A stretch of DNA of 64,000 nucleotides from the NCBI GenBank assembly GCA_025336725.1, contig GCA_025336725.1_3647.1; one strand, given 5' to 3'. Under the pieces are notes generated by a model, which ran no database searches, was not told the DNA's origin, and saw only the letters and a program-made list of their open reading frames with translations. The stretch's first letter is position 1, and each line of letters opens with the position of its first letter. Position numbers and translations under genes: made by a program. Source of the DNA: Escherichia coli (GTDB taxonomy: Bacteria; Pseudomonadota; Gammaproteobacteria; Enterobacterales; Enterobacteriaceae). Shown one piece after another: positions 13,089 through 42,028 of the stretch.

Positions 13089-13165
13089 TGGTCTCCACGG
13101 AGTGATTCGAACACTCGACCTCCTGATCCCAAATCAGGCGCTCTACCAAGCTGAGCTACGCGGAG
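13089..13165 (-). tRNA. tRNA-Pro (anticodon TGG)
   Basis: Hand-folded cloverleaf: acceptor CTCCGCG/CGTGGAG, anticodon stem CCTGA/TCAGG with loop TTTGGGA, T-loop TTCGAAT, encoded CCA. Confidence 0.65.
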
Positions 13166-13174
13166 TTTATAATT

Positions 13175-13249
13175 TGGTGGCCCTGGGTGGAATTGAACCA
13201 CCGTCTGGCGATTATGAGTCGCTTGCTTGAACCTTCCAGCTACAGGGCC
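13175..13249 (-). tRNA. tRNA-Met (anticodon CAT; could be Ile-lysidine)
   Basis: Acceptor GGCCCTG/CAGGGCC, anticodon loop CTCATAA, T-loop TTCAATT, encoded CCA. Confidence 0.6.
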
Positions 13250-13250
13250 A

Positions 13251-13326
13251 TGGTGCTGATGGCAGGACTCGAACCTGCAACCTATTGATTACAAATCAAT
13301 TGCACTACCAATTGTGCTACATCAGC
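13251..13326 (-). tRNA. tRNA-Thr (anticodon TGT)
   Basis: Acceptor GCTGATG/CATCAGC, anticodon stem ATTGA/TCAAT with loop TTTGTAA, T-arm GCAGG-TTCGAGT-CCTGC, CCA. Confidence 0.6.
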
Positions 13327-13331
13327 AAAAA

Positions 13332-13430
13332 GGTGCTAGGCGATGGAATCGAACCACCTATGTATTCAACGACTACTTCGTCTATTTTCAGGATTAAAAA
13401 TCCTCGCCCTTGCCAAAGGGCCTACCTAGC
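13332..13430 (-). tRNA. Atypical tRNA-like element (~99 nt), identity unresolved
   Basis: Good acceptor (GCTAGGT/GCCTAGC), D-arm and T-arm (GGTGG-TTCGATT-CCATC); only plausible anticodon hairpin AGGA-TTTTTAA-TCCT (TTT) plus a ~30-nt variable region with its own hairpin. Confidence 0.4.
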
Positions 13431-13528
13431 ATATTATGCGAATCATGCTGCTAGTCGGCGATGACGACTGTAACATTTGTTAATCCGGTTCTGCTTCCGG
13501 AGCTCGCTTAATTTCATGATCCACGATC

Positions 13529-13618
13529 TGGCAGAGAGTAATGGAATCGAACCATCATCGAGGATATCTCAACGGGACGGTTTTCAAGACCGCTTGAGCA
13601 CCATGCTCCCTACTCTCT
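13529..13618 (-). tRNA. tRNA-Ser (anticodon TGA), long variable arm
   Basis: Acceptor AGAGAGT/ACTCTCT, anticodon stem GCGGT/ACCGT with loop CTTGAAA, ~20-nt variable arm, T-loop TTCGATT, CCA. Confidence 0.6.
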
Positions 13619-13730
13619 TTTTATAAACAACACTGATAATGACACTGATTTTCGAACAGTTAGTGACTAGTATAAACGACGATAAACATCAATGTCATTA
13701 TCTATGTTATTTATCACAAATATGTAATTT

Positions 13731-13817
13731 TGGTGGGGAGTGATGGAGTCGAACCACCCGAGTCGCAATGACAATAGATTTACAGTCTACACCGCTACCC
13801 CTACGGTATAACTCCCC
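13731..13817 (-). tRNA. tRNA-Tyr (anticodon GTA), long variable arm
   Basis: Acceptor GGGGAGT/ACTCCCC, anticodon stem GTAGA/TCTAT with loop CTGTAAA, ~15-nt variable arm, T-loop TTCGACT, CCA. Confidence 0.6.
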
Positions 13818-13821
13818 GATT

Positions 13822-13896
13822 TGGCACCCCGTACTGGACTCGAACCAGTGTCAACGGCTTAGAAGGCCGCTGCTTTATCCACTAAGCTAACAGGGC
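13822..13896 (-). tRNA. tRNA-Arg (anticodon TCT)
   Basis: Anticodon stem GCGGC/GCCGT with loop CTTCTAA, T-loop TTCGAGT, CCA; acceptor contains G-U wobbles. Confidence 0.55.
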
Positions 13897-35032: not shown

Positions 35033-37344
35033 TCACCAAAGTAATTAAAAGTAACGGATGTGAAGTTGAATTCGATCCAGAACGTTTAAATAAGGCAGCT
35101 ATTTTCGGTGACGACGGTAACGGCAATTGGTCACATATTGCAATGGATGCATACAAACGTCTGTATGATGGATGCACAACCAAAGAAGTTAACCAAGCTA
35201 TTATAGATTCATGTGTTAGCCGTAAAGACGAAGCACATTCCCGTATGGCTGGTCGTGTTCTTATTGGTCAGATCTATAAAGAGGCTTTTGGAGGGTTTAC
35301 AAAGATCCCTTCCTTACCATCATTCTACAATACCATGGTTGAGAAAGGGTATTGGGAGGATATGGGTTATAGCTTTACTGAGTTAAACACTTTAAACACT
35401 GTTATTGATCACAGTAAAGATCTCGGTTATGGCTATGCAGTCCTTAAACAGTTTCGTGACAAATACGGGATCAAGGATACTCTTAAAGACACCCTGTTTG
35501 AATCTCCCCAGATGATGTTTATGGGGATAGCAATGGCTGTAATGAAGAATATGCCTAAAGAACGCCGTATTAACGATGTTGTAAAATTATACACTTATCT
35601 GTCAGACTTAAAGATCAATGCCCCGACACCGTACTTAAACGGTCTACGCACAGGCAAGACAGGGTATGCATCTTGTTGCGTAATAAAAGCTGACGATACA
35701 GCAAAGTCTATTGGTGTGGCACGTGAAGTTGCTTACACAATGACGGTTAACCAAGCAGGCATTGGCTACTATTTATCGTCAAGATCTGCAGGTGATGGTG
35801 TTCGTGGTAACACGATTAAACATATGGGAAAGCTCCCATATTATCGTGGTATTGATGCTGGGGTTAAGGAGAATAGACAACAATCCCGTGGTGGTTCGGC
35901 AACAGTGTCATTCCTTGCACTGGATCCTCAGATTGATGAGCTAATCCGTTTGAGAAACCCTATGACTGTTGCTTCAAAAAGAATCAACACTATGGATTAT
36001 TCCATAGGTATTAATAGGTCGTTTATCAACCGTGTGGCTAAAAATTTAGATTGGATGCTTGTTTCTTATAAGCACGCACCTCAGCTGCATGAAGGCATCT
36101 TCACCATGTCTATGGAGGAGTTTGATGCAGAGGTTGATCGGATCGCTAAAGATGACAGTATTCCTAAAACATGGATCCGTGCTAGAGATCTTGCTGCTGA
36201 ACTTATCACGCAGCGTACTGAGGTAGGAAGACTGTATGTATACTGGACAGACGAGATGAATAGGCATACACCTTTTAAAGATGTAATCTATTCAAGCAAC
36301 CTGTGTGCAGAGATAGCCCTTCCGACAAAAGGCTATTCAGATATGCGTAATATCTTCAAGTATGATGCTGATGATGGTGAGGTTGCATTGTGCTTCCTAT
36401 CATCTCTTGTAGCTGGGAGGGTTACCCCAGAGGAGTATGAGGACGTTGCATACTACACGGTGCTTATGATTGACAATGTTATGGAAATCATGACATATCC
36501 GTATGAAAATATGGAGAGCACTGTTAAAAAACGCAGATCCATCGGGGTTGGCCTTACCAATGTTGCACATTTTATTGCCAGCCACAAGGTTACTTACGGA
36601 TCTCCTGAAAGTAAACAGCTTGTTCACGATCTTGCAGAACTCCACAGCTACAGCTTGCATAAGGCAAGTTTACGGTTGGCAAAAGAGCGTGGTGTCTGCG
36701 AGTGGATGCATAAAACAAAATATCCAGAAGGTTGGTTACCAATCGACACCTATAACAAAGAGGTCGATAGCGTGGTGAAAGATCCTTCTCTTAAACAGGA
36801 TTGGGAAGGGTTACGTAAAGAAATAATTGAAAATGGTGGGCTACGTAATAGCGTTCTTGAAGCATATATGCCTAATGAAAGCTCTTCGCTGGCAACAAAC
36901 ACCACTAACGGGGTTTATCCTGTCCGTGAGCACATTATCTTTAAAAAGTCGCCACAAGGGCAGGTGCTGTTTATCGTTCCTGACTATGATGAGTTGAAAG
37001 AGTATTACACTTCGGCTTGGGACGTTGATACTAACGACATGATCGATATGTATGCTGTGATTCAAAAATTCACAGGTCAGGCAATCAGCGCGGATTTATA
37101 CATCGACTACACCAAGTTGAAAGATGGTAAAATTTCAATGAAGGAGCAGCTGGGTTACCTTATCCGTGCTACTAAATTCGGGATGAAGACATGGTATTAT
37201 TTAAACTCCAGGGTTGGTGCTGGTGACTCCTTGGCAGAGGAACTTCATGCCAAGAAACAGGCTGAAGATGAAACCAGAAAGAACTATCCTTTGATTGCAG
37301 ATAGTTCAGTTGAAGATCCGTATTGCGAAAGCTGTGCACTATAA
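35029..37344 (+). CDS. nrdA: Ribonucleotide reductase class Ia large subunit
   Basis: 771 aa, NrdA-typical length, followed by NrdB-like and glutaredoxin genes. Confidence 0.7.
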   Translation: MITKVIKSNGCEVEFDPERLNKAAIFGDDGNGNWSHIAMDAYKRLYDGCTTKEVNQAIIDSCVSRKDEAHSRMAGRVLIGQIYKEAFGGFTKIPSLPSFYNTMVEKGYWEDMGYSFTELNTLNTVIDHSKDLGYGYAVLKQFRDKYGIKDTLKDTLFESPQMMFMGIAMAVMKNMPKERRINDVVKLYTYLSDLKINAPTPYLNGLRTGKTGYASCCVIKADDTAKSIGVAREVAYTMTVNQAGIGYYLSSRSAGDGVRGNTIKHMGKLPYYRGIDAGVKENRQQSRGGSATVSFLALDPQIDELIRLRNPMTVASKRINTMDYSIGINRSFINRVAKNLDWMLVSYKHAPQLHEGIFTMSMEEFDAEVDRIAKDDSIPKTWIRARDLAAELITQRTEVGRLYVYWTDEMNRHTPFKDVIYSSNLCAEIALPTKGYSDMRNIFKYDADDGEVALCFLSSLVAGRVTPEEYEDVAYYTVLMIDNVMEIMTYPYENMESTVKKRRSIGVGLTNVAHFIASHKVTYGSPESKQLVHDLAELHSYSLHKASLRLAKERGVCEWMHKTKYPEGWLPIDTYNKEVDSVVKDPSLKQDWEGLRKEIIENGGLRNSVLEAYMPNESSSLATNTTNGVYPVREHIIFKKSPQGQVLFIVPDYDELKEYYTSAWDVDTNDMIDMYAVIQKFTGQAISADLYIDYTKLKDGKISMKEQLGYLIRATKFGMKTWYYLNSRVGAGDSLAEELHAKKQAEDETRKNYPLIADSSVEDPYCESCAL

Positions 37345-37349
37345 TTTTA

Positions 37350-37371
37350 AAGGGGCTTCGGCCCCATTTTA
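37350..37371 (+). terminator. Hairpin plus T-tract between nrdA and nrdB (attenuator-like)
   Basis: GGGGC-ttcg-GCCCC followed by ATTTT. Confidence 0.45.
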
Positions 37372-37382
37372 GAGGTAGAATA

Positions 37383-38470
37383 ATGGCTGTATTTAATGCT
37401 GAGAACACCGCTCATAAAACTGGTGACTATCCGCTGTTTCTGGGACAGCAAATGGGCATGTACGACTCTATCAACAAAAAATATCCACAACTGTTTGAAC
37501 TATACAAAAAACAAAAAGAGCAAGATTGGGCAGAGGATGAAGTGGATTTGTCGCAATCTATTTCAGATTTTGTAACATGCTCTAAGTCAACTTATGACGT
37601 GATGGTGCAGACCTTGATGTGGCAATGGGAGGCTGATAGCGTTGCGGCAAGATCGATTATCTGCCTCTTTTCACCATTCATCACTAATAGCGAGCTTTTC
37701 ACTCTACTGATGAAACAGTCAGAGATTGAAGTTCTTCACGCACTAACCTACTCAGAGATTGTTAGACAATGCCTCCCTAATGCTCGTGAGATTATAGAAG
37801 AGATTCAGGAAAACCAAAACGTTCTGAGCAGATCTGGCGTTATTGTCAAATACATGCAAGAGCTTGAGATTATTGGTGCAAAATACCGACTGGATCCTTC
37901 TAGTGTTGAAGAAGATATTGTGCGGAAATGCATTCTTAGAGCGCTTTTGCACTTTTAGCTCTGGAAAGTATTGAGTTTGTGCAAGTTTTGCATATACTTT
38001 CGCAGTAGCTGAACAGGGTATTTTTTGTTCAGGTAGCGCAGCTTGTTCAAAAAATCATGCTTGACGAAATGCTGCACTCGAAAGGTGATTTTGCCATCAT
38101 TGATATCCTGCTTAATGATCCAGCATGGGAGAAAAGCTTCCTTGAGATAAAAGGGGAGTTAAAAGAGATTCTTGATGAAGTACGAACCAAAGAGTACGGT
38201 TGGAGCGACTATATTTTCAGCGAAGGAAGAGCGATTATAGGTCTTAACTCACCGTTGCTTAAAGAATGGGTTGACTATAACTGTTCACCGATTTATGATT
38301 ACTACGACATCGACAAAGACTTTGTGCCGCCAACAAAGGACCCGCTACCGTTTATGCAGGTGTGGATGAAACCTTCATTGCAACAGACGGCGAACCAAGA
38401 AATGTCGAACACTGACTACCGCGTCAACACAACTGTTAACGACGCTGAAGAAGAAATTTGGGAGTTTTAA
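37383..38470 (+). CDS. nrdB: Ribonucleotide reductase small subunit, disrupted by about three frameshifts
   Basis: N-part has ExxH-Y (EIEVLHALTY); the SFAxxFAxAE and DEMLH motifs appear in different frames within 37940-38060, each switch at a T-run. Confidence 0.65.
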
Positions 38471-38473
38471 TAT

Positions 38474-38752
38474 ATGAGCTGCGAAAAATCTTTTTTCATC
38501 ATCATTTACGGTAAGGATAACTGCCCACATTGTGTAAGAGCAAAAGAATTTGCAGTCAGTAAAGGCATACCTTTCGTATACAAGACGCTAGGTGAGGGAT
38601 ACACAAAAGAAGAGCTTATCGAGAAGTGTAGCCCATTTGTTCCCAGAACGTTGCCTCAGATCTTCTTGGAAAGCAACCTTAACAGTATCCACATAGGAGG
38701 TGCTGACGATTTCATCTCTTTTGTTAAGAATGGTTTTGGAGAGAAAAAGTGA
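38474..38752 (+). CDS. Glutaredoxin (NrdH-like)
   Basis: 92 aa with CPHC redox motif near the N-terminus. Confidence 0.65.
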   Translation: MSCEKSFFIIIYGKDNCPHCVRAKEFAVSKGIPFVYKTLGEGYTKEELIEKCSPFVPRTLPQIFLESNLNSIHIGGADDFISFVKNGFGEKK

Positions 38753-41378
38753 AAGTTGTAAAACGGGACGGTAGAGAAGAGTTTTATAACGGAATCAAGG
38801 TGATCAAGGCGGCAGAGTCCGCCTTACTTGAGTCTGGGCATACTGAAGAAGAAGCTTACCGGATTGCCTGCGCGGTTAATGAAGTTGTTGCCAACAATCT
38901 GCCAACCGACCAGTGCACGATCTCTGTAAAAAATATCCATATCCTTGTTGAAGATGCTCTTATGGATATGGGTTTAAAATGTGCAGCCAGAGAATACATC
39001 CAGTATAGACAGACAAGAGATAATAACAGAGAGGCAGGTGGAAAACTGCTTGCAGATATTAGTGGCTTTTTGGATCGTACTTGTGATGAATTTACAAAAG
39101 AAAACGCAAATAAGCCTACTAATCATGTACACACTCATCGTGACCTGCTTGCAGGAATCCTTAGCAAACACCTTGCATCAACACAGATCCTGCCAGATCG
39201 TGTCTCAGAAGAGCACAACAAGGGCTTCATCCATGTGCATGATCTTGACTACTTGATCAGTCCGTTAACAAACTGTTGTTTGGTAAATTATCCGGATATG
39301 CTGGAAAACGGATTCAACATTGGTAACGCCCATGTCAGCAAGCCTAAGTCAATAGGGGTTGCAACAACAATCCTTAGCCAAATCTCTAGTGCAGTAGCTA
39401 GTGCTCAATATGGTGGTCAGACTATGAGCCATATTGATCATTATTTGGCACAGTATGCTGAAGCCACCTATGAGAAGAACCTTAAATTTTGTCAGGAGCA
39501 TTGGTTGCCGGATGCTGAAGGCGTTGCAATGCAGATGACTGATAAAGACGTGTTTGACAGTATGCAGACGTTGCTTTATCAAATCAACACGTTAACTTCT
39601 GTCAACGGTTAACAAACTGGCCGTTTTAAAACTCTGCTAACCTCAGTATGAGGGGTCAGCTGATTGCTGGCTAACGGGGAACGCTAAGGCGAAAGCTATG
39701 CCAATCCCGTGACTAGCTTCACAAGGAGTGAGGCGGTTGTAACGACTAACCTTTTGGTGTAGGGATTATGGAAGATTCCGAAACGCAGAGGTCTGATTAA
39801 GAATCACATGGTGTGATTTCAGGCAAGAGATAGTCTGGCCTTGTGGAAACATAAGGGTGGGGACCGCAAACCCCTTTTATCACATTAAGTTTAGGACTTG
39901 ATACCTCGGTCTTTGGTAGAATGATTACCAAAAACTATTTGAAAGTTCACAAAATGGGTCTTGGTGAAGAACGGATCACACCTGTGTTCCCTAAAGTATT
40001 GTTCTTCCTAGAAGAGGGTGTCAACATGAGCCCTGAGGATCCTAACTATGATTTGAAACGATTAGCTCTGGAATGCTCTGCAGAGCGGATTTATCCTGAC
40101 TTTGTTTCTGTTCCGCTAAATCGTAAGGTGACAGGTTCTACAGATGGCAAAGTAACGAGCATGGGTAAACTATAACTGCTCATGTAAAATCTATCTAAAC
40201 GGGGAAACTCCAGAACGGACAATCCCGTGCTAAATGTTCTTTTGAACTAAATGCCTAACGACTAACCGTGATGAATGTAGCGGTGTAGGGTGTAAGCCGA
40301 TGACACTCGAAATGGTAGACACACTAAGTGTGAAGATATAGTCTGATCTGCATGGGAACATGCAGCAGCACTTAAAGGTGCGGGGGTGGACTTGCGAACC
40401 ACCCTGAACATAATGTGTAGAAGTTTCTTATCGAAATATAGCGACCCTGTAACAGGCGAGGAGAAATACCTTGGCAGATTTAACTTAGGTGTTGTTAGCC
40501 TTAACCTACCAATGATTGCGGCAAAAGCTAAGACGGAAGGTGTTGATTTCTTTACCGTTCTAGACGAATATCTGGATTTGGCATATGAAGCTCACCTTGT
40601 AAGGGTTAACCGTCTGAAAGGCACTAAGGCAGGTCAGAACCCCATCATGTGGTGTGAAGGCGCTCTTGCTCGCTTGGATCCTGAAGAGAGTATTGATAAA
40701 CTCTTCTATGACGGGTACGCTTCCATCAGTATTGGGTATATTGGTGTGTATGAAACCTGTCAGATTTTGGGTAGAGAGGGAGACAAGGCTTTAGCTCTTG
40801 GAATCCTTCAGCACATGAAAGATGCTTGTGAGCGATATAAGAAGGAAAGTGGTCTGGCATTCAGCTTGTACGGCACTCCTTCTGAAAGCTTGTGCTACAA
40901 AGCTGCAACCTGTCTGGATCGTGAATATCCTGAGGTATTGAAGCACGAGCATGAATATATCACCAACAGTTTCCACCAACCAGTATGGATCAATAGTTCA
41001 CCTTTTGATAAGTGGAAGTATGAAGAAGGTTTTGCTATGATCTCCTCTGGCGGCAACATTGGATACATAGAGACACCTAACCTGAAAAACAACCTGGATG
41101 CTTTAGAGGCTCTTGTTGACTTCGGGTATAAACACATTATGTATTTTGGTATTAACCAGCCAGTGGATAAATGTCTTAAGTGTGGATTCTCTGGTGAGTT
41201 CAGTGCAACAGCTAAAGGGTTCTGCTGCCCTGCGTGCGGATGCCACGATGAACAATATATCTCAGTGATCCGAAGAGTGTCTGGCTATCTCTCCAGCCCG
41301 AACAGTAGGCCGTATAACACAGGTAAACAAGCAGAGGTTATCGAGCGAGTTAAGCACTACGGAAGTTGTGGCTGCTGA
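38749..41378 (+). CDS. nrdD: Anaerobic ribonucleotide reductase, three exons
   Basis: Exon1 38749..39609, exon2 ~39867..40166 (GPQTPF...DTS...GRMIT...PEDPNYDL), exon3 40416..41378 (CRSFL, RVSGYL glycyl-radical motif, CxxC...CxxC). Confidence 0.7.
39610..39866 (+). mobile_element. Group I intron 1 in nrdD (ORF-less, ~257 nt)
   Basis: Exon ends in T, intron begins with TAA stop and ends in G; contains AAGAGATAGTCTGG resembling the group I core; exon reading frame restored after removal. Confidence 0.5.
40167..40415 (+). mobile_element. Group I intron 2 in nrdD (ORF-less, ~249 nt)
   Basis: 5' exon ends ATGGGT, intron ends in G before TGT AGA (CRSFL); contains AAGATATAGTC, the conserved group I core element. 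Confidence 0.6.
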
Positions 41379-41440
41379 TACTTGACAAAAGCCACAAGGA
41401 TGTGGCATATTGTTGGTACACAGTAAACTAGGAGGTGCAG

Positions 41441-41560
41441 TATGTCTACAGGTATTTATAAAATTTGCAAGTGCGGTTGCCATTGTAATCTTCGTTGGTG
41501 CAAGGCGCTGGATGATTTTATTTGGTATTGCCCTGAATGTGGTGCGGAGTATCTATGAAC
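41441..41560 (+). CDS. Small Cys-rich zinc-ribbon protein (39 aa), not in ORF track
   Basis: ATG preceded by AGGAGGTG; MSTGIYKICKCGCHC...WYCPECGAEYL. Confidence 0.35.
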
Positions 41561-42028
41561 ATTGCCGGATACACAGAAATATCTTACACCGAAGGGCCAG
41601 GTATTAGAACTGCCTTGTGGGTATCTGGGTGCCCACACGCTTGCCCTGGTTGCTTTAATCAGGCATTTTGGTCAAAAGATAAGGGAAGAGAGTTCACCGA
41701 GGAAGACTTGCAAAAAATCTTGTCAGATTTGGACAACCCGTCTGTGTGCGGTATCTCTCTGCTGGGTGGAGAACCCTTGGCATACTATAATGAGCCGGGT
41801 ATTATTAGCCTGATGGAGAAAATTAAGGAAAAATTTGGTGACAAGAAAACTATTCTTGTGTATACTGGGTTCACATTTGACCATATCTCTAGTGATGTTC
41901 TTAAACTGGCTGATATCATCATTGATGGTAAGTATATAAAAGATTTGCCAACCAAGAAACCGTTCCGAGGAAGCGATAACCAAAGAATGTTTAAAAAAGT
42001 AGCAGGTGGGTGGGTTCAGGTAGACTAA
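41555..42028 (+). CDS. nrdG: Anaerobic RNR activating enzyme (radical SAM)
   Basis: Cys cluster GCPHACPGC near the N-terminus; start refined to MNIAGYTEIS. Confidence 0.65.
   Translation: MNIAGYTEISYTEGPGIRTALWVSGCPHACPGCFNQAFWSKDKGREFTEEDLQKILSDLDNPSVCGISLLGGEPLAYYNEPGIISLMEKIKEKFGDKKTILVYTGFTFDHISSDVLKLADIIIDGKYIKDLPTKKPFRGSDNQRMFKKVAGGWVQVD

Follow-up and report, generated by a model that had tools for sequence, protein, structure and literature searches.

The 64,000-nucleotide stretch of Escherichia coli DNA analysed here (GenBank assembly GCA_025336725.1, contig GCA_025336725.1_3647.1; hereafter the window) carries an interrupted nrdD gene for the class III (anaerobic) ribonucleotide reductase (RNR). 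Positions 38400-41800 are 93-95% identical to many Vequintavirus (rV5-like) coliphage genomes, and judged by this likeness the source of the window is an rV5-like coliphage (Vequintavirus). The gene order at the locus is nrdB, glutaredoxin, nrdD, a 38-codon Cys-rich open reading frame (ORF) and nrdG, as in annotated relatives. The glutaredoxin gene (grx, 38474-38752; Pfam Glutaredoxin, and so annotated in relatives) lies directly 5' of nrdD in the same operon context, and nrdG, encoding the activating enzyme of NrdD, lies at 41555-42028 (Pfam Fer4_12 and Radical_SAM). Both genes, and nrdD with everything inside it, are on the plus strand. Two intervening segments of 257 and 249 nucleotides (nt), called intron 1 and intron 2 below, separate three nrdD exons. 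We argue that the gene very probably carries two compact, endonuclease-free group I introns whose guanosine-initiated self-splicing would yield a NrdD of 707 amino acids (aa).

Exon 1 (38749-39609, 861 nt) has a GTG start that overlaps the grx stop codon, encodes the ATP-cone and the N-terminal part of NrdD, and ends in ...SVNG at codon GGT. Exon 2 (39867-40166; 300 nt, 100 codons) encodes QTPF...TSMG, and exon 3 (40416-41378, 963 nt; stop codon at 41376-41378) begins at the presumed catalytic Cys codon (CRSFLS...) and supplies the glycyl-radical domain and a C-terminal Cys cluster. Each exon length is divisible by three, and the join is a single 707-aa ORF with zero internal stops. The spliced protein covers PF13597 NRDD in full (1-562 of 562, E = 4e-160) and also matches PF01228 Gly_radical and PF03477 ATP-cone (residues 1-91). 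Its alignment to T4 NrdD (crystal-structure sequence 1h78, E = 5e-169) is gapless over both joins, ntltsvng/qtpfitl and kvtsmg/crsfls (here and below a slash between residues or bases marks an insertion point). The MGCRSF motif of the window protein aligns with the T4 motif, where the Cys is Cys290, which we take to be the catalytic cysteine. The complete NRDD domain with this Cys, the C-terminal glycyl-radical domain and the adjacent nrdG together identify a class III enzyme. The three exons had been delimited, exactly as given here, by a first-pass annotation made from the sequence, which read the gene as split by two ORF-less group I introns; their in-frame join proves colinear with T4 NrdD.

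Intron 1 (39610-39866, 257 nt) follows T39609, ends in G39866 and has TAA in frame at 39610. Intron 2 (40167-40415, 249 nt) follows T40166, ends in G40415 and has an in-frame TAA at 40173-40175. These lengths and ends had been proposed as approximate and the splice sites as inferred; they now hold to the base, since intron-less alleles read straight across the same junctions. AlexBoehm, with intron 1 present and intron 2 absent, is contiguous at the intron 2 site (...ACGAGCATGGGT/TGCCGGAGTTTT..., the junction itself being AGCATGGGT/TGCCGG). Aya (Vequintavirinae), in which both introns are absent, reads ...GTCAACGGG/CAAACTCCG... at the intron 1 site (junction GTCAACGGG/CAAACT). The flanking bases differ on the two sides of each boundary, so the boundaries cannot slide, and removal of both introns restores an uninterrupted gene that is colinear with T4 NrdD and with the intron-less alleles. 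Both introns have the ends of group I introns, namely an exon-terminal U set in a U-G wobble and a terminal omega G (G39866 and G40415). No plus-strand ORF of 30 aa or longer lies in either, as their description as ORF-less implied, apart from an in-frame run-in to exon 3, 10 codons long, from a GTG at 40386.

The conserved group I core (P3-P8 and P4-P6 domains, P3/P7 pseudoknot and J8/7-P7 motif) is present in both introns, and the core motifs that the first reading had noticed are located at 39825-39838 and 40333-40343. For intron 2 the case is straightforward. The Rfam group I model RF00028, which had been suggested as a check and has a curated gathering threshold of 50 bits, scores it at 72.7 bits (E = 1.6e-16, whole window), and its minimum free energy (MFE) z-score is -2.89 against dinucleotide shuffles. 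In an explicit structural model, P1 (40159-40185, 8 base pairs [bp]) pairs exon GCAUGGGU with guide GCUCAUGU and sets U40166 in a wobble with G40178. The model continues with P3 (40190-40195 with 40314-40319), P4 (40199-40204 with 40223-40228), P5 (40209-40219), P6 (40229-40230 with 40253-40254), P6a (40236-40247), P7 (40260-40264 with 40339-40343, the latter strand within the J8/7-P7 motif AAGATATAGTC at 40333-40343), P7.1 (40265-40284), P7.2 (40288-40308), P8 (40320-40332) and P9 (40348-40365). P9.1 (40368-40371 with 40378-40381) and P9.2 (40383-40389 with 40399-40405) come from the MFE fold; in an alignment with ECGD1, P9.2 changes from GGGGGUGG with CCACCCU to GGGAGUGG with CCACUUU. All pairs from P1 to P9 are standard.

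Comparative data agree with this model. In an alignment of nine members of the intron 2 family (A1; eight nrdD introns and one terminase intron, in three insertion contexts), the model pairs 99.0% of cells; sliding the partners by 1-3 columns lowers this to 30-43%. Changes on both sides of a pair occur in 16 of 47 pairs, a count matched by none of 500 shuffles, and are heaviest in P3, P7.1 and P7.2. Among the eight nrdD introns neither P7 nor the splice-site U-G varies; in the terminase intron P1 is misaligned. Over its positions 12-202, intron 2 has 83% identity with the F1-type nrdD intron of T-even phages and 76% with the T4/U5 (sunY) intron. This core homology, together with covarying P7.1 and P7.2 between P7 and P3', places intron 2 by sequence and model in the T4 sunY/nrdD intron family (IA2 type, no P2), the IA2 label being presumed from what we know of T4 introns.

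Intron 1 required more work. RF00028 gives it 28.1 bits, under the 50-bit threshold (E = 5.7e-5 in a 1-kb search and 0.0036 in the whole window), and its MFE z-score is -4.25 against dinucleotide shuffles. The low score arises because the Rfam model forces a weak, mismatched P3 and cannot fit a 35-nt P3.1/P3.2 insertion. Rfam's P3, which takes part of GCUGGC with CAGAG, was dropped, as its mismatches are flagged and GUCAGC with GCUGGC covaries as P3.2. In the MFE fold, by contrast, two hairpins separate P3 from the UAA before P4. The check that had been suggested thus succeeded for intron 2 and fell short for intron 1, for which a corrected model and covariation were needed; since intron 1 lies below the Rfam threshold, its group I membership rests on structure and covariation.

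In the corrected model, P1 (39604-39625, 8 bp) pairs exon AACGGU and the following UA with guide UGGCCGUU, with the wobble at U39609-G39620, and is invariant in seven sequences. P3 is formed by CUCUGC (39632-39637) with GCAGAG (39785-39790), and is found in the MFE fold and backed by a compensatory change. It is followed by the extra hairpins P3.1 (39641-39653) and P3.2 (39655-39671) between P3 and J3/4, by P4-P5-P5a, with a GAAA loop, and P6 (39674-39734), by the P7 5' strand (39744-39748), P7.1 (39749-39758) and P7.2 (39762-39779), by P8 (39791-39824), by J8/7 and the P7 3' strand in AAGAGAUAGUCUGG (39825-39838), the region of the core motif AAGAGATAGTCTGG, and by P9, also with a GAAA loop (39839-39856). 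P7 is invariant. Only standard pairs are used in P1, P3, P3.1, P3.2, P4, P5, P5a, P6, P7, P7.1, P7.2, P8 and P9, so that a P1-P9 structure can be folded from both segments and, with the covariation, the earlier group I assignment stands for each.

The same model forms in the HNH-carrying variant of intron 1 (JEP1, FV3 and Phage 203), in which every helix is kept with altered sequence. The variant P3 is CUCUCC with GGAGAG, a compensatory G-C to C-G change relative to the window; further compensatory changes fall in P3.2 (A-U to G-C), P6, P9 and a hairpin between the 3' tail and the exon. The variant P6 is rebuilt from a different sequence, and its P7.1, P7.2 and P8 are entirely different hairpins. 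A full-length MAFFT alignment (A2) misaligned P7.1-P8. In an alignment of the core of seven sequences (A3), pairs form in 99.0% of cells and, once the partners are slid, in 32-51%. On this model we take intron 1 to be a true group I intron of IA type, from a subfamily that RF00028 captures poorly. The P3.1/P3.2 pair was considered as a new structural feature and dropped, since P3.1 is already recognised among the optional helices of group I introns (PMC3873408) and Bacillus-type phage introns have the same arrangement.

Two further observations concern intron 1. Its 3' tail GGGG (39859-39862) can pair with CCCC in exon 2 codons 2-3 (39871-39874), which would put the 3' splice site inside an 8-nt loop; in the HNH-carrying type the hairpin is GGAG-CUCC, through synonymous exon changes from ACC CCT to ACT CCA. 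This hairpin is not a standard group I element. JEP1 intron 1 (L003 1650-1665) has in the 5' strand of its long P7.1 a decoy GCAGAG, the P3' sequence of the ORF-less type, which may be a remnant of a rearrangement when the ORF-bearing form arose.

The positions of the introns can be compared with those of other phage nrdD introns. The T4 intron splits the Tyr179 codon (GAGT/AT), a site recovered by requiring the known protein sequence and common to T4, U5, F1 and FL44. The intron 1 site (...SVNG/QTPF..., G287/Q288 of the window protein) is 11 codons downstream of the equivalent of the T4 site, and the intron 2 site (...SMG/CRSF..., G387/C388, or Gly/Cys290 in T4 numbering) is 111 codons downstream of Tyr179. 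Neither window intron is at the T4 site. The comparison with the single T4 nrdD (sunY) intron drawn in the first-pass annotation thus holds for homology, in the case of intron 2, and not for position.

Other phages with an intron at the Gly/Cys site are, with an ORF-less form, the Justusliebigvirus phages ECGD1 and A145 and phage TH18 and, with an HNH gene, Phapecoctavirus nepoznato (in P6) and Vibrio phage F100. In TH18 a second nrdD intron (L022, ~2613-2884), with boundaries set by eye, lies at a fourth site, approximately ...YGTP/SES... (window residues 545/546); it has an IA-type core, CUAACGACUAUCGAAAGC ... GUGAUAUAGUCUAG, and RF00028 gave no report for it at E < 0.01. In F100, an unclassified Vibrio phage (L021 1-2668), nrdD is annotated in several pieces with two HNH genes, and one of its introns is of the sunY family, at the same Gly/Cys site and with the same guide as intron 2. 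Phage nrdD has at least four intron sites.

Among the 50,697 records of the phage collection, intron 1 was found in 43, all rV5-like genomes bar one (a 50-nt match in Bacillus phage S4-2); 14 of the copies, with 98-99% identity, lack an ORF, and the other 29 contain an HNH gene in P8. An intron at the SVNG/QTPF position was found only in Vequintavirus, and the site is uninterrupted in many relatives. About 18 Vequintavirus records have intron 2; each copy contains a 510-nt HNH gene in P6, and outside P6 the identity is 96-98%. Both introns occur in at least seven genomes (navn, 241Ecol014PP, A147, A135, JEP1, C2 and phita32), and the earlier remark that two introns in one nrdD are less usual was therefore an overstatement. 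Several of the two-intron genomes are annotated as nrdD_1, nrdD_2 and nrdD_3, and nrdD of AlexBoehm as a two-piece join; multiply split nrdD is also seen in TH18 and Vibrio phage F100. The compact ORF-less intron 2 of the window was found in no record of the phage collection and, by a pattern scan, in no IMG/VR contig. Only this fully endonuclease-free combination is not on record; the same introns at the same sites are already known from many deposited relatives.

No literature description of Vequintavirus nrdD introns was found. The BASEL annotators report defining intron boundaries (PMC8594841), the rV5 genome paper describes introns in the terminase gene, which is in three segments, and not in nrdD (PMC3606486), and a survey of phage RNRs describes split nrdD genes and multi-intron nrdE genes (PMC3653736). 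The feature is real, was correctly interpreted, and is an ordinary, well-documented example of a classical phage phenomenon. About two dozen MG0656xx records deposited as 'Campylobacter phage' (A147, A135, C2, A145 etc.) are ~95% identical to E. coli Vequintavirus or Justusliebigvirus here, and A145, the one record inspected, is marked UNVERIFIED; their Campylobacter jejuni host labels look doubtful.

The structures suggest how the gene would be expressed. The grx-nrdD-nrdG transcript would fold two ribozymes, in each of which a guide near the 5' end of the intron would pair with the end of the upstream exon in P1 and set the exon-terminal U in the U-G wobble. Free guanosine held in P7 would attack after this U, and the freed 3'-OH of the exon would then attack after the terminal G of the intron and ligate the exons. 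Two such reactions would produce a single mRNA for the 707-aa NrdD, while on unspliced RNA ribosomes would be halted at TAA 39610 and TAA 40173. We infer that both introns self-splice in this way. Several points weigh against that conclusion. P10 is weak in both introns (by inspection, two possible pairs for intron 1), and intron 1 falls short of the curated Rfam threshold. The count of both-sided changes in A3 is not above that of shuffles (206 of 500), and the covariation of intron 1 comes from effectively two lineages, so that each compensatory change is a single event. The nearby nrdB appears frameshifted, which means either an imperfect sequence or a decaying RNR locus. Finally, T4 nrdD is dispensable in aerobic growth, and an intron that does not splice could be tolerated for some time.

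In the strongest alternative the introns are real by descent, but splicing has been lost from one of them (most plausibly intron 1) or from both, leaving nrdD as a tolerated pseudogene or a gene for a truncated product. The 28.1 bits of intron 1, the weak P10 and the disappearance of the endonuclease genes from both introns are compatible with such decay, and the three single-base indels that break nrdB could mean relaxed selection on RNR genes; the indels, however, are all in T runs, the pattern expected of sequencing error. Decay is also hard to reconcile with core helices that are intact with standard pairs in both introns, with the U-G wobble and terminal G in place, and with three exons that have neither stops nor frameshifts and retain full Pfam coverage. 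Moreover, the same ORF-less intron 1 (98-99% identity) is retained in 14 independent isolates. We regard loss of splicing as improbable.

Less probable again, and by a good measure, is that separate NrdD polypeptides assemble after translation without RNA splicing, as is reported for the mobE-split nrdA of Aeromonas phage Aeh1. Splicing-free split RNR genes are known from literature cited by PMC7344957, and for exon 3 an in-frame GTG at 40386, with AAAGGU before it, is a possible start. That GTG, however, sits within the P9.2 hairpin, and exon 2 has no start codon in its first 18 codons, which include the conserved QTPF, the earliest being ATG 39921. The interruptions are full group I ribozymes with covariation, and their boundaries match the intron-less alleles to the base. 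That the segments are inteins, translational bypass elements or assembly artefacts is barely credible: the 249-nt length of intron 2 is divisible by three, but the in-frame stops at 39610 and 40173 and the 257-nt length of intron 1 rule out inteins (stops and lengths led us to drop the bypass reading as well), Rfam and covariation identify group I structure, and the same inserts in dozens of independently sequenced phages cannot be an artefact.

On the preferred reading of two self-splicing introns, the next question is how they came to be in nrdD. Introns of relatives contain ORFs with HNH_3 and NUMOD-like domains, which lie in the loop of P8 in intron 1 and in that of P6 in intron 2, and both window introns are ORF-less forms of introns that carry I-HmuI-like HNH genes in those relatives. 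Neither window intron has a homing endonuclease gene of its own. They are ORF-less derivatives or precursors, whose movement could only be passive or depend on an endonuclease provided in trans. Between a Vequintavirus and a Phapecoctavirus, the HNH proteins encoded in intron 2 are 91% identical, whereas the NrdD exons are 63-68% identical, which indicates recent horizontal movement of the intron cassette. Synonymous differences between intron-plus and intron-minus alleles cluster beside the sites (TGT AGA AGT TTC TTA TCG versus TGC CGG AGT TTT CTT AGC), the pattern that would be expected of co-conversion during homing. We infer past mobility by homing, and occupation of a site would shield it from the cognate endonuclease if a relative infected the same cell.

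The guide GCUCAUGU is identical in the T-even (Tyr179) and Gly/Cys-site introns, where it pairs with AUGAGU and AUGGGU, respectively, immediately before the splice site (A-U versus G-U). The guide differs in the related terminase intron of Aeromonas phage 2L372X. The unchanged guide fits a move to a site that already matched it, as in reverse splicing; illegitimate endonuclease-mediated events may instead account for it, and a counterpoint to a guide-matched move is that ATGRGT occurs three times in spliced nrdD. Intron 2 of the window is the HNH-carrying intron of 241Ecol014PP bar one base (intron position 28) and the P6a hairpin, and its P6a is identical to that of the T-even F1-type intron. 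It is either a pre-invasion form or one that lost the HNH gene when a patch was recombined in from a paralogous intron. Plain deletion of the HNH gene was rejected as its origin, since P6a would need four or five more changes, yet matches the F1-type exactly. The ORF-less intron of TH18 has yet another P6a, so the ancestral and recombinant origins of the window form cannot be told apart. A combined scenario, in which one sunY ribozyme lineage came to occupy two nrdD codons in unrelated coliphage families, leaving the unchanged guide as a trace of ectopic reverse splicing and not of homing driven by an endonuclease, and in which intron 2 became a mosaic by patch recombination between paralogous introns of two different phages in co-infection, with exact excision of the endonuclease gene, is offered tentatively, and we think it rather unlikely to be right as a whole.

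The neighbourhood of nrdD in relatives includes a further, free-standing gene (~310-390 aa) between nrdD and the small ORF (L003 4400-5335, L004 3917-4849, L014 4587-5747). It has DUF4379/CapR zinc-finger and T5orf172 domains in JEP1 and navn, and is annotated as GIY-YIG in SophiaRose. The window lacks the T5orf172/GIY-YIG-type gene of JEP1, navn and SophiaRose and has only a 63-nt spacer at 41379-41441, so that all three endonuclease slots of the nrdD locus are empty. The 38-codon Cys-rich ORF (MSTGIYKICKCGCHCNLRWCKALDDFIWYCPECGAEYL; 41442-41558), between nrdD and nrdG, overlaps the nrdG start. It is kept as a 117-nt coding sequence in relatives and has no Pfam match; it could encode a small zinc-ribbon protein.

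Upstream, nrdB (37383-38470) differs from nrdB of SophiaRose (1089 nt, 97.4% identical) by three single-base indels near 37945, 37979 and 38022, each within a T run and together a net loss of one base. They break the gene into ORFs 37323-37958 and 38057-38470, in different frames, and reflect either homopolymer sequencing error or a genuine pseudogene. Elsewhere in the window, a tRNA cluster lies on the minus strand at 13092-13896, in which five tRNAs exceed the Rfam threshold. Two more tRNA-like matches (13335-13430 and 13532-13619) to the tRNA-Sec model are below threshold and are probably tRNAs with a long variable arm.

The analysis leaves the current understanding of group I introns unchanged. 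Its immediate consequence is for annotation: nrdD here should be recorded as one three-part join, a gene often entered as three 'NrdD' fragments. A default-threshold Rfam search would overlook both intron 1 and the intron at the fourth site in TH18. The locus is one more case in support of phage RNR genes as hotspots for self-splicing introns at catalytic codons. The ORF-less, HNH-carrying and empty alleles among ~95% identical phages provide a natural system for the cycle of gain and loss of homing endonucleases, and the same set may be suited to the study of intron movement to a new site.

The closest known system is the T4 nrdD (sunY) intron. Intron 2 shares with it the same helices, the absence of P2, the presence of P7.1 and P7.2, and an identical guide. 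The T4 intron is, however, 1033 nt long and carries I-TevII, a GIY-YIG gene located 3' of P9, whereas intron 2 of the window has 249 nt and no ORF, and in its relatives P6 contains an HNH gene. The introns of phAPEC8-like phages (ECGD1, whose nrdD intron is annotated as a join, A145 and nepoznato), of TH18 and of F100 share the site and guide of intron 2, and their cores are 76-86% identical to it; these phages belong to different subfamilies, and P6 in their introns is long, with an HNH remnant or an intact HNH gene. In the Gly/Cys-site intron of TH18, a C-G replaces a U-A within P7.

The counterparts of intron 1 lie farther afield. An intron of Bacillus phage S4-2 (in a DNA polymerase III alpha-like gene) and the IMG/VR introns L016 and L017 have a P4-P5 nearly identical to that of intron 1 and the same layout of P3, two hairpins, UAA and P4, a likeness compared mainly in the 5' half; the RF00028 score is sub-threshold in the S4-2-type comparison as well (28.7 bits). 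They differ from intron 1 in their host genes and hosts, and in having ORFs in P6. Several group I introns in one phage gene that is essential or conserved, at functionally critical codons, are known from nrdE of Twort (two introns), nrdE of Brochothrix A9 (three introns and an intein) and the rV5 terminase gene (PMC3653736, PMC3606486), which differ from nrdD of the window in the gene or in the host.

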